NCBI GenBank assembly: GCA_038883995.1
Contig: JAVZLA010000002.1
Span: forward strand, 5,261-69,260
Length of the DNA stretch: 64,000 nt
Direction: 5' to 3'
From: Thermoprotei archaeon
GTDB taxonomy: Archaea > Thermoproteota > Thermoprotei_A > Marsarchaeales > Marsarchaeaceae
This document shows, piece by piece, positions 3,162 to 5,012 of this stretch. The notes beneath the pieces are model-generated. The model was not told the origin of the DNA, did not search any database, and saw only the letters and a list, made by a program, of their open reading frames with translations. Each line of letters starts with the position of its first letter. The stretch's first letter is position 1. The position numbers were made by a program, and so were the translations under genes.

Positions 3162-4451
3162 TCAAGCCCGTTTGGCGGCGTAAGGGTTGTCTATCCAGTT
3201 CAGGTACTTGGAGCCTTTGACGCTTGACACTAGCGCAGTGGGTATGCTACTCTCTTCTCCTCTGGCTAGCTCATCGCGGATAACCTTGAGTTGAGTTGAG
3301 CGAATGTTGTAGAAATGTGAAAAGCACTCCTTGTTCCATGATTCGAGGACGGTTTGCTCGGGGTGTACTCCTTGCTTGTGCTCACAGCAGGGCAAACTAC
3401 ACGGATACGCGTAGCCGTTACGCTCAAACAGGGAAACGCACGAATCAAACCCCACGAAGCCGAATACGTTTTCACTTCTGCCAGTCCAGAGATAGGGTCT
3501 TCTACCTTTCTGATCCGGGCGAGGCATTCTCTCTGAGAAGGCGTCTACGCCAGAACAGAGGAGAGGCAATCCGACTTCTCCGGCATCCACAAGGAATACT
3601 GCAAGCCTGTTCATCTTGCGCACCGTGTTCAGGGTCTTTATCAGGTCCTTTAGGCCGAACACTTCGTCCGGTGAGAGATGTTCCAGACCTAATATCTTTA
3701 CGAAGAGGACGTGCGGATTCTTCTCACTATCGGCCAGAGCCGACTGGTTCATGAACATGTAATCTTCAAGCGTGACCTTGAACAGGCTGTTTTTAAGAGC
3801 GGATCTGTCCAAAACGAAGTAGTAGGCGCAGCCATAGGGCTTCAGGGGCGACTGCTCGAACGATGAGGTAAACGTGCTGTTGACGTTGAAGGCTAGCTCC
3901 ATCACGGCCGCGCTGGAACCATCTACTACGGGGACCGGAGGCAAAACCAAGTCTACTCCCATAGATGCCTGCGCGAGAGTAATGGCCTCAAGAAACTTCC
4001 AGAACTGTTTGGACTCGCTTAACCTCATTATACCCTCGTTGTATCTTCTACCTCCGAGTGCAAGCACTTCTCTTTCAATCGTTCTATCGAAGCTAACTGT
4101 GGAAAGAGACCTCACTGCACGTATCCAAGACTCCACTCTCCCGTCGCTCTTACTGTAGAGTAGTTCCGGCTCAGGGTCAGCGAACACGTGGCTGGTGAGC
4201 GTTCTAAGAGAATTCCTTTTAACGGATTCCCTAACGTCGGCAAGAGTCTCCAAGCTTGTAAAGACGCCTACAGGCTCAGCTACCAACGGAGAGGCCGACA
4301 TCAGTTCGTTGAACTCAGCTGTGTCTGATACGTGACATATGTATGCAGGAAGATCCATTATGACCTGACCTGCACATGTAAGTCTCCTTAGAGACTGATA
4401 GCTGGTTGAGGAGTGCTCGTCTGAGCCCCTGACAGCCTGGAGTTCAATCAT
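3162..4451 (-). CDS. hypothetical protein with a TGT-superfamily-like C-terminus (divergent tRNA-guanine transglycosylase/DpdA-like TIM barrel?)
   Basis: 429 aa. [24 protein letters not shown] aligns by eye to archaeal TGT [34 protein letters not shown]...[22 protein letters not shown] aligns to FPCSCPVCS...ALHNLWVIKEEIKRVKQAIKEGE, the Zn site plus terminal helix. There is a 4-nt ATGA overlap with the upstream wHTH gene. Confidence 0.4.
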   Translation of the reverse strand: [429 protein letters not shown]

Positions 4452-4975
4452 TTATATTCTCCAGTAATAAACGTCATGTTATAAAATTGTTGCGCCGCCT
4501 GACCTAATTTCCCTAAAATTTCCGCCGCCTCACTGAGCGGGATTGCTATGGCTCCCTGGACCCGCGGAGAACCCGAAGAATCCCTAGAAATCTCCTGTAC
4601 AAGCACATAGTAGCCTGTGAGCGGATTGCTCAACGTTTGAAGCCTATAGGCCCTTCCGCTCTCGGTTGTAAACTCTTGGTCGCTTCCAGGATGATCAACC
4701 TTGTTGTTCGAATAATACACGCCAGTCCTATCCTCATAGTACACTTCTCTTATCGCGGTTAGCCAAGTCAGATGCCGTTTAACGACGTGATCGCTGAGCC
4801 CAGTCTTTTTAACAATATCCGAAATACGTGCCCCGGTTTTCAGTTCAGAAAGCGCCCGTTTAACAAGCTCCGCGTTCGCCCGAGTTTTCCTTCTCCTCGA
4901 AAAACTGTCTACGACCGCTCTCGGTGCGGTTTGGAGGTTTGCTCGGTCACTATCGACCGACCTTTCCGGGGTCAC
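4448..4975 (-). CDS. winged-helix DNA-binding protein (hypothetical), first gene of a two-gene operon
   Basis: ISDIVKKTGLSDHVVKRHLTWLTAIREVYYEDRTGVYY has an HTH-plus-wing pattern. GTG start; translationally coupled to 3162..4451. Confidence 0.5.
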   Translation of the reverse strand: MTPERSVDSDRANLQTAPRAVVDSFSRRRKTRANAELVKRALSELKTGARISDIVKKTGLSDHVVKRHLTWLTAIREVYYEDRTGVYYSNNKVDHPGSDQEFTTESGRAYRLQTLSNPLTGYYVLVQEISRDSSGSPRVQGAIAIPLSEAAEILGKLGQAAQQFYNMTFITGEYK

Positions 4976-5000: not shown

Positions 5001-5012
5001 CTAATATTTAAA
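5001..5012 (-). promoter_or_regulatory. TATA box (TTTAAATATTAG on the minus strand) for the 4975..3162 operon
   Basis: A/T-rich box about 26-37 nt upstream of the GTG start at 4975, followed by the palindromic CTTATAAG element. Confidence 0.4.

Follow-up and report, generated by a model that had tools for sequence, protein, structure and literature searches.

All characterised proteins with the tRNA-guanine transglycosylase (TGT) fold, comprising TGT, archaeosine TGT (ArcTGT), DpdA and Cap10, handle 7-deazaguanines by means of the same three aspartates. These residues are invariant in TGT and DpdA (PMC10164549; PMC5699537), and in ArcTGT they serve as the general acid/base (D95), the base-reading residue (D130) and the nucleophile (D249, equivalent to D256 in DpdA) (PMC10164549). 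Cap10, a component of type IV CBASS, retains equivalents of these residues, with D248 as the catalytic aspartate and D73, S74 and D122 reading the deazaguanine (bioRxiv 10.1101/2025.04.06.647259). We analysed a 64,000-nucleotide stretch of contig JAVZLA010000002.1 from a Thermoprotei archaeon (hereafter the window), which carries two coupled genes for a 429-amino-acid protein and a 175-amino-acid winged helix-turn-helix (wHTH) partner. As judged by sequence comparison and structure prediction, the 429-amino-acid protein is a PUA-less member of the TGT-fold superfamily with a zinc motif, and represents a very divergent and so far unannotated branch. Its family combines the conserved fold and zinc site with a rewired pocket, a winged-helix partner of its own and the company of restriction-modification systems and transposases.

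Searched alone, the 429-amino-acid protein returned no significant match in Pfam, NCBIfam, PADLOC or the PDB. No PF01702 or NCBIfam TGT model matched it above threshold, and the Pfam TGT model matched none of 27 family members. An exhaustive phmmer search yielded 28 representatives, defining a family of proteins of about 430 amino acids, in which the window protein has three to four close relatives at 35–44% identity. A 27-sequence family profile (A3) matched ArcTGT from Pyrococcus horikoshii (1iq8) in the PDB with an E value of 5.3e-9, in an alignment that takes in the zinc motif PCxCxxC...H near the C-terminus and, with weak similarity, the TP motif near the N-terminus. Using hhalign, the family aligned with 29 ArcTGTs of the same phylum with a probability of 98.1 (E = 5.9e-13, global), while strand β8 and the zinc subdomain alone gave a probability of 97. 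The A3 profile also picked out the zinc motif of canonical ArcTGTs (500–570 amino acids) in 63 other genomes. At family level the significant alignment to ArcTGT spans the FLVDAGE..GVDAFSE stretch and the PC..CC..H segment (PCxCxxC..H in ArcTGT). An earlier model-made reading of the locus from sequence alone (the original prediction) had aligned this C-terminal part to ArcTGT by eye; we judge that alignment to be correct because profile, hhalign and fold matches agree. It had also proposed PF01702 and DpdA profiles as a check; PF01702 and the PADLOC Dpd models did not match, and the family profile did match 1iq8.

The AlphaFold2 model of the 429-amino-acid protein (predicted local distance difference test (pLDDT) 87, predicted template-modelling score (pTM) 0.89) combines a (β/α)8 barrel with an antiparallel sheet at the N-terminus and a zinc-binding subdomain at the C-terminus. 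When this model was submitted to Foldseek, as the original prediction had suggested, all 50 of the top 50 matches were TGTs. Structural comparison with VIA-align, searching against representative structures, placed members of the TGT superfamily in ranks 1–5: ArcTGT (1iq8; Z 25.9 over 332 residues, 3.5 Å), bacterial TGT (Zymomonas mobilis, 3unt/1q2r; Z 24.8), QTRT2 (6fv5; Z 21.1), Cap10 (9ntn; Z 19.4) and DpdA (7ui4; Z 15.5), with generic TIM barrels appearing only from Z 11.9 down. In addition to the barrel, the N-terminal sheet and the zinc subdomain, the protein shares with ArcTGT and bacterial TGT an alignable TP motif at β1, GxD before β8 and zinc motif (CxCxxC...H in the wider family), and probably an aspartate at the end of β3. 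It differs in lacking the PUA and C2 (C2/C3 tRNA-binding) domains and in having a helical insertion of about 65 residues between β3 and β4, and its family lies below PF01702 detection and has an obligate wHTH partner. The absence of PUA, which the original prediction had noted, is borne out by the lack of a Pfam match to this domain and by a fold match that stops at residue 383 of the 1iq8 chain; the protein itself ends about 45 residues past the zinc motif. A canonical ArcTGT of 497 amino acids is encoded elsewhere in the same genome (at L013), in keeping with the proposal that the window protein is not the housekeeping archaeosine enzyme.

Despite the conserved fold, alignment indicates that two of the three hallmark catalytic aspartates are lost in this family. 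The nucleophile (D280 in Z. mobilis TGT, D249 in P. horikoshii ArcTGT, D256 in DpdA and D248 in Cap10) aligns to S306, a replacement already recognised in the original prediction, and this position is variable across the family (S/I/V/A). The adjoining E307 recurs in 25 of 27 sequences, and a larger set of 36 has it in 27. At β4 the family has an ADxIxPPxP motif, which places P174 or V173 at the position of the base-recognising aspartate (D156/D130/D122); this assignment comes from a weak alignment and motif spacing and is of low confidence. D177, three residues past that position, is kept in only 18 of 36 sequences. A glutamine and the Gly-rich loop of TGTs are also lost. The third aspartate appears to be retained: D92, present in 35 of 36 sequences, closes the third barrel strand of the model, and its spacing from the TP motif equals that of D95 in 1iq8. 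It is therefore likely to be the counterpart of the TGT general acid/base (D102/D95/D73), although the next residue is an invariant proline (P93, 36/36) rather than the serine of the DS(G) motif of TGTs. On strand β6, K252 (lysine in 34 of 36 sequences and arginine in 2 of 36) has no counterpart in TGTs, which have the Gly-rich loop there, and is a candidate catalytic or substrate-binding residue. Other near-invariant positions are E96, D/E289 on β7, D303, W372, N373 and the zinc ligands. That the conserved polar residues (D92-P93, E96, K252, D/E289, D303 and E307) map to the predicted catalytic face argues for an active enzyme, while the loss of residues that read guanine and 7-deazaguanine speaks against a substrate pocket of the TGT or DpdA type.

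The predicted zinc site corresponds to the three cysteines and one histidine proposed originally, and its motif also aligns with the ArcTGT consensus PCNCPVC...H. Within the window clade, the second cysteine is displaced from position +2 to +4 (C351-x3-C355-C356); the wider family keeps CxCxxC...H.

The gene for the wHTH partner lies directly upstream, overlapping or a few bases away, in every locus for which upstream DNA is available (about 20 checked: the window, L001, L005, L009/L014/L057, L017/L052, L011, L012, L046, L047, L054–L056 and L067–L078). Partner lengths range from 161 to 187 amino acids, and among the loci from a metagenome scan (L067–L078) the partner was found in 12 of 12 (hmmsearch E values of 1e-33 to 1e-44). 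In the window, the ATGA shared by both genes would couple their translation; homologous loci show equally tight coupling or 0–12 nucleotides between the genes. The GTG start of the 175-amino-acid gene is supported because the ATG starts of homologues align there. Upstream, the TATA-like box TTTAAATA fits an archaeal promoter and may act as one, and its distance of about 30 nucleotides from the GTG implies a near-leaderless transcript. The overlapping reading frames and the TATA-like box described in the original prediction are thus present in the sequence as reported, and its proposal of co-transcription is consistent with the strict linkage across loci.

The family is archaeal, sparse and patchy, and always accompanied by its winged-helix partner. 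Full-length members were found in only 3 of 61 relatives, all from one taxonomic family, and in 2 genomes among 401 sampled from the phylum. A scan of IMG/VR (alignment A6) returned no viral relatives, and a fold search of BFVD, including phage DpdA-like models, gave only weak matches (template-modelling (TM) score ≤0.42). Neither protein is covered by any Pfam, NCBIfam or PADLOC model, and the family is therefore invisible to current genome annotation. Our literature searches found no description of the family, and neither TGT nor Dpd comes up in a 2026 survey of archaeal immunity.

The AlphaFold2 model of the partner (pLDDT 77) has a disordered N-terminus, a wHTH domain at residues 29–93 and a C-terminal domain at about residues 100–171 consisting of a four-strand β-sheet and a long helix. 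The wHTH assignment, made originally from sequence, was confirmed by fold (Z 11.6, root-mean-square deviation 1.1 Å). Among its best fold matches, Z-alpha domains tie with ordinary wHTH regulators, and a profile of nine partners against the PDB gave the Z-alpha domain of fish PKZ as the best, albeit weak, match (E = 5e-4). The asparagine and tyrosine that contact Z-DNA in Z-alpha domains align to lysine and threonine or aspartate in the partner. With these residues replaced and ordinary regulators scoring equally, we rejected a Z-alpha identity and read the domain as a generic wHTH. Complex prediction with the enzyme and partner alignments gave a score of 0.00, which is no verdict and counts neither for nor against binding.

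We examined the genomic neighbourhoods of the family. In 9 of 13 informative contexts, at least one restriction-modification or other defence gene, transposase or recombinase is found no more than 5 kb from the pair, and these contexts are spread over at least 5 separate subclades of a maximum-likelihood tree (neighbours are listed in Table 1). The transposase families near the pair differ, including IS4/5-like, IS6/IS240 and IS21 elements, as well as a serine resolvase. Both the transposases and the restriction-modification systems represent unrelated kinds; the latter are complete without the pair, from which we conclude that the pair is independent cargo. The original prediction had pointed to preQ0 genes and restriction-like partners as contexts to look for; the former were not seen near family members, and the latter provide an association that the prediction itself had not made.

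The window clade forms a long, fully supported branch of the same tree, with all of its members in chromosomal contexts. Members of the close clade occupy three different chromosomal loci with no conserved neighbour in common. Around the window pair the genes are housekeeping in character (cox-type FAD and 2Fe-2S subunits, a HIT protein, valyl-tRNA synthetase (ValRS), a SET-domain protein, AIM24 and an aldehyde dehydrogenase), and the GC content of the pair, both overall and at third codon positions (GC3), equals that of these neighbours. Only short, chance-like inverted or direct repeats were found flanking the pair. A comparison with a genome of the same family (G002) for insertion borders found only the cox genes in common and was uninformative on borders. 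We read the window clade as a long-resident solitary chromosomal copy.

Taken together, we favour, with moderate confidence, a model in which an undescribed TGT-superfamily enzyme and its obligate winged-helix partner form a mobile, conflict-type two-gene module that performs remodelled glycosidic-bond chemistry on DNA or RNA, the partner targeting or restraining the enzyme. The barrel would still catalyse base excision or base exchange, targeting a nucleotide's N-glycosidic bond, more likely in DNA than in RNA. The β3 acid D92 would be retained in the remodelled site, and the role of the TGT nucleophile may have passed to E307, or to D/E289 acting with the invariant K252. As the base-reading aspartate is lost, the substrate base is probably not preQ0 or guanine as read by TGT, DpdA and Cap10. 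The winged-helix partner would either target the enzyme to nucleic acid or autoregulate and restrain it. Most branches of the family are cargo carried next to restriction-modification systems, other defence genes and transposases. Cap10 is likewise a TGT fold that a conflict system has taken over, remodelled to work with a protein partner. It differs in retaining the catalytic and deazaguanine-reading residues and in being accompanied by the QueC-like Cap9 and a CD-NTase, genes for neither of which were found in the neighbourhoods examined here.

Several points weigh against this model. Significant sequence similarity to TGT is limited to the C-terminal third of the protein; the register of β1–β7 (sub-region hhalign E values of 0.2–0.9, not significant), and with it the residue mapping of β3–β7, therefore rests on strand order, spacing and weak alignments. 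E307 is absent from one subclade, which has serine or threonine instead, so there is no universal single nucleophile candidate. Housekeeping genes surround the window copy and its three closest relatives, which have native GC content, and a defence role for the window copy is hence an extrapolation. The numbers of contexts are low, and many of the contigs are short. Finally, the activity, the substrate and the binding of the pair are predictions from sequence and model.

A bolder version of the model, which we put forward only tentatively, posits a new catalytic type on the TGT scaffold. The enzyme would be a sequence- or modification-directed nucleic-acid glycosylase, or would exchange a base that is not a 7-deazaguanine, with K252 and D92 replacing the Asp-Asp pair of TGT, for example by forming a Schiff base as in bifunctional DNA glycosylases. 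Guided by its partner, it could serve as a mobile ‘restriction-glycosylase’-like or anti-modification weapon alongside archaeal restriction-modification cassettes. Given the conserved fold, the rewired pocket, the dedicated partner and the mobile company, the family could reveal new DNA or RNA chemistry. Such chemistry might be a base modification not seen before, the action of a restriction-type glycosylase or that of a toxin directed at tRNA; a new function in archaeal defence or mobile elements could also emerge.

Among the alternatives, a toxin-antitoxin or abortive-infection pair survives best, although we regard it as improbable. The enzyme would then be a toxin that damages tRNA or rRNA, for instance through excision of a base with no replacement, and the wHTH protein would be both antitoxin and autorepressor, as in AbiEi/AbiEii and HipB/HipA. 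These modules likewise couple an upstream DNA-binding protein to a larger enzyme and are mobile and patchy, as here; their enzyme folds are unrelated to that of the TGT-fold protein. The layout of the locus is classic for such a pair, with the small DNA-binding gene first, a 4-nucleotide overlap and one predicted promoter. The obligate pairing fits as well, as does the patchy, mobile occurrence, either solitary among housekeeping genes or beside restriction-modification systems, MazE or transposases. Furthermore, the fold is nearest to tRNA-acting TGTs, and the extra C-terminal domain of the partner could bind the enzyme. However, 429 amino acids would be large for a toxin, and in the close clade conservation is higher for the partner (63–66% identity) than for the enzyme (41–44%), the reverse of the usual antitoxin pattern.

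A DpdA-type function, towards which the original prediction had leaned, is unlikely. In such a system, guanine in DNA would be exchanged for preQ0 or another 7-deazaguanine from the archaeosine pathway, with the wHTH protein replacing DpdB as the DNA-loading or targeting factor. DpdA of Salmonella Montevideo, a DNA preQ0 insertase (PMC10164549), and phage DpdA have a PUA-less TGT fold and occur in defence or mobile contexts, and DpdA presumably works with a separate nucleic-acid-handling partner. The zinc site of the window protein and the presence of DpdA among the five specific structural matches are compatible with this idea, as is the frequent proximity of the family to restriction-modification systems. 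ArcTGT and QueD-like genes occur in the genome, and preQ0 is thus probably available. Nevertheless, the fold is nearer to tRNA TGTs (Z 25–26) than to DpdA (Z 15.5), to whose phage relatives the match is weak, and no PADLOC Dpd model matched. D130 and D256 of DpdA (D130 and D249 of ArcTGT), reported to be invariant (PMC10164549; PMC5699537), align to the PPxP motif and S306, respectively. Across about 13 informative neighbourhoods, queC/D/E, folE, DpdB (a ParB-like ATPase) and DpdC were not found near any member, nor were the dpdD–K helicase and nuclease genes; in genome G366, an SNF2 helicase best matched by DrmD/BrxH also matches DpdE. QueC was not found in the window’s own genome either, but this genome is only about 75% complete and the result is hence uninformative. 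Overall, the observation behind the original prediction is confirmed and its interpretation is partly supported.

Less probable still is a catalytically inert TGT-fold sensor of nucleobases or nucleic acid, or a scaffold, that would act like QTRT2 and form a regulator together with the wHTH protein. The third-best structural match is QTRT2, which forms the non-catalytic subunit in eukaryotic TGT and also combines the TGT fold and a zinc site with a replaced nucleophile. Loss of the nucleophile and of the base-reading aspartate in the window family would suit this reading, and bacterial kinase-fused TGT-fold proteins (see below) suggest that the fold can be used as a sensor. In contrast, D92-P93, E96, K252, D303 and D/E289 are almost invariant in a family of 15–25% identity, a set of polar residues different from that of QTRT2 and one that fits an active site. 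Moreover, QTRT2 pairs with a catalytic TGT paralogue, QTRT1, whereas the window family pairs only with the wHTH protein and has no linked catalytic paralogue. Finally, an ordinary paralogue with a housekeeping role in tRNA modification, or a TIM-barrel enzyme of metabolism accompanied by its transcription factor, would suit the position of the window copy between cox-like dehydrogenase subunits, the HIT protein and ValRS and its native GC content, but is highly improbable given the sparse distribution, the different locus in each genus, the separately encoded canonical ArcTGT and the restriction-modification genes and transposases found beside the family elsewhere.

Table 1. Features of the two-gene locus in the window and of the neighbourhoods of related pairs.
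Feature	Position	Strand	Basis or detail
429-amino-acid TGT-fold gene	3162..4451	-	Open reading frame, ATG start
175-amino-acid wHTH partner gene	4448..4975	-	Open reading frame, GTG start
ATGA stop/start overlap between partner and 429-amino-acid genes	4448..4451	-	Read from sequence
TATA-like box TTTAAATA	5005..5012	-	About 30 nucleotides upstream of GTG; read from sequence
wHTH domain of partner	4697-4891	-	Fold match
D92-P93, end of strand β3	4173..4178	-	Strand order in model and spacing from TP motif
K252 on strand β6	3696..3698	-	Conservation; strand from model
β8 motif G301-V-D303-A-F-S306-E307, counterpart of GxDLFDS in TGT	3531..3551	-	hhalign
Zinc motif, residues 351-379 (C351, C355/C356, H379)	3315..3401	-	Aligned to C279/C281/C284/H307 of 1iq8
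SET-domain protein, 165 amino acids	8139-8636	-	PF00856, E 9e-14
Neighbours of pair in L054			IS4/5-like transposase; XcyI-type restriction-modification system
Neighbours of pair in L055			EcoRII-type restriction-modification system; MazE; IS240 transposase
Neighbours of pair in L056 and P0009 contig			Type IIG restriction-modification enzymes
Neighbour of pair in P0014 contig			IS240 transposase
Neighbours of pair in L072 and L078			IS5-like transposase, then NgoFVII-like PLD nuclease, two methylases
Neighbour of pair in L068			Serine resolvase
Neighbours of pair in G366			Mrr nuclease; DrmD/BrxH-like SNF2 helicase
Larger layout common to two distant members	L072:2811-12369; L078:1179-8802		
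Run adjoining pair in G366	L052:11255-19269		
Three conserved genes downstream of pair	L001:12048-14525; L005:8249-10601		
Divergent gene pair upstream of module	L074:3516-5128; L075:1635-3247; L076:5715-7341		

Several neighbourhoods contain further features of note. In the window, the SET-domain protein is encoded directly downstream of ValRS. The larger layout common to L072 and L078 consists of the pair, an IS5-like DDE transposase (DDE_Tnp_1/DUF772), an open reading frame of about 150 amino acids, the NgoFVII-like PLD restriction nuclease, an N6_N4 methylase and an Eco57I-like methylase, and looks like a composite mobile restriction-modification cassette. The run adjoining the pair in genome G366 resembles a defence island and encodes proteins of 594 and 585 amino acids without known identity, a 240-amino-acid protein with an adenylate/guanylate-cyclase domain, the Mrr-type nuclease, which stands alone, the SNF2 helicase and a DUF2130 protein. 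The best PADLOC match of this helicase is DrmD/BrxH, and it also matches ZorD and DpdE.

In two related metagenomic lineages (L001 and L005), the pair is followed by three conserved Pfam-less genes, the first encoding a 119-amino-acid protein with a weak Rpc34-like winged helix and the others forming a coupled pair encoding 369 and 179 amino acids. A conserved divergent gene pair (about 400 and 135 amino acids) lies directly upstream of the module in L074–L076; neither of its proteins has a Pfam match, and their sizes recall TnpB and TnpA of IS200/IS605.

Structural neighbours of the 429-amino-acid protein in the ESM Atlas include Bacillota proteins of 650–680 amino acids in which a Ser/Thr kinase domain is joined to a TGT-fold region, as well as several bacterial families of 350–400 amino acids. 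As the latter lack Pfam matches, TGT-fold families invisible to Pfam seem to be widespread.

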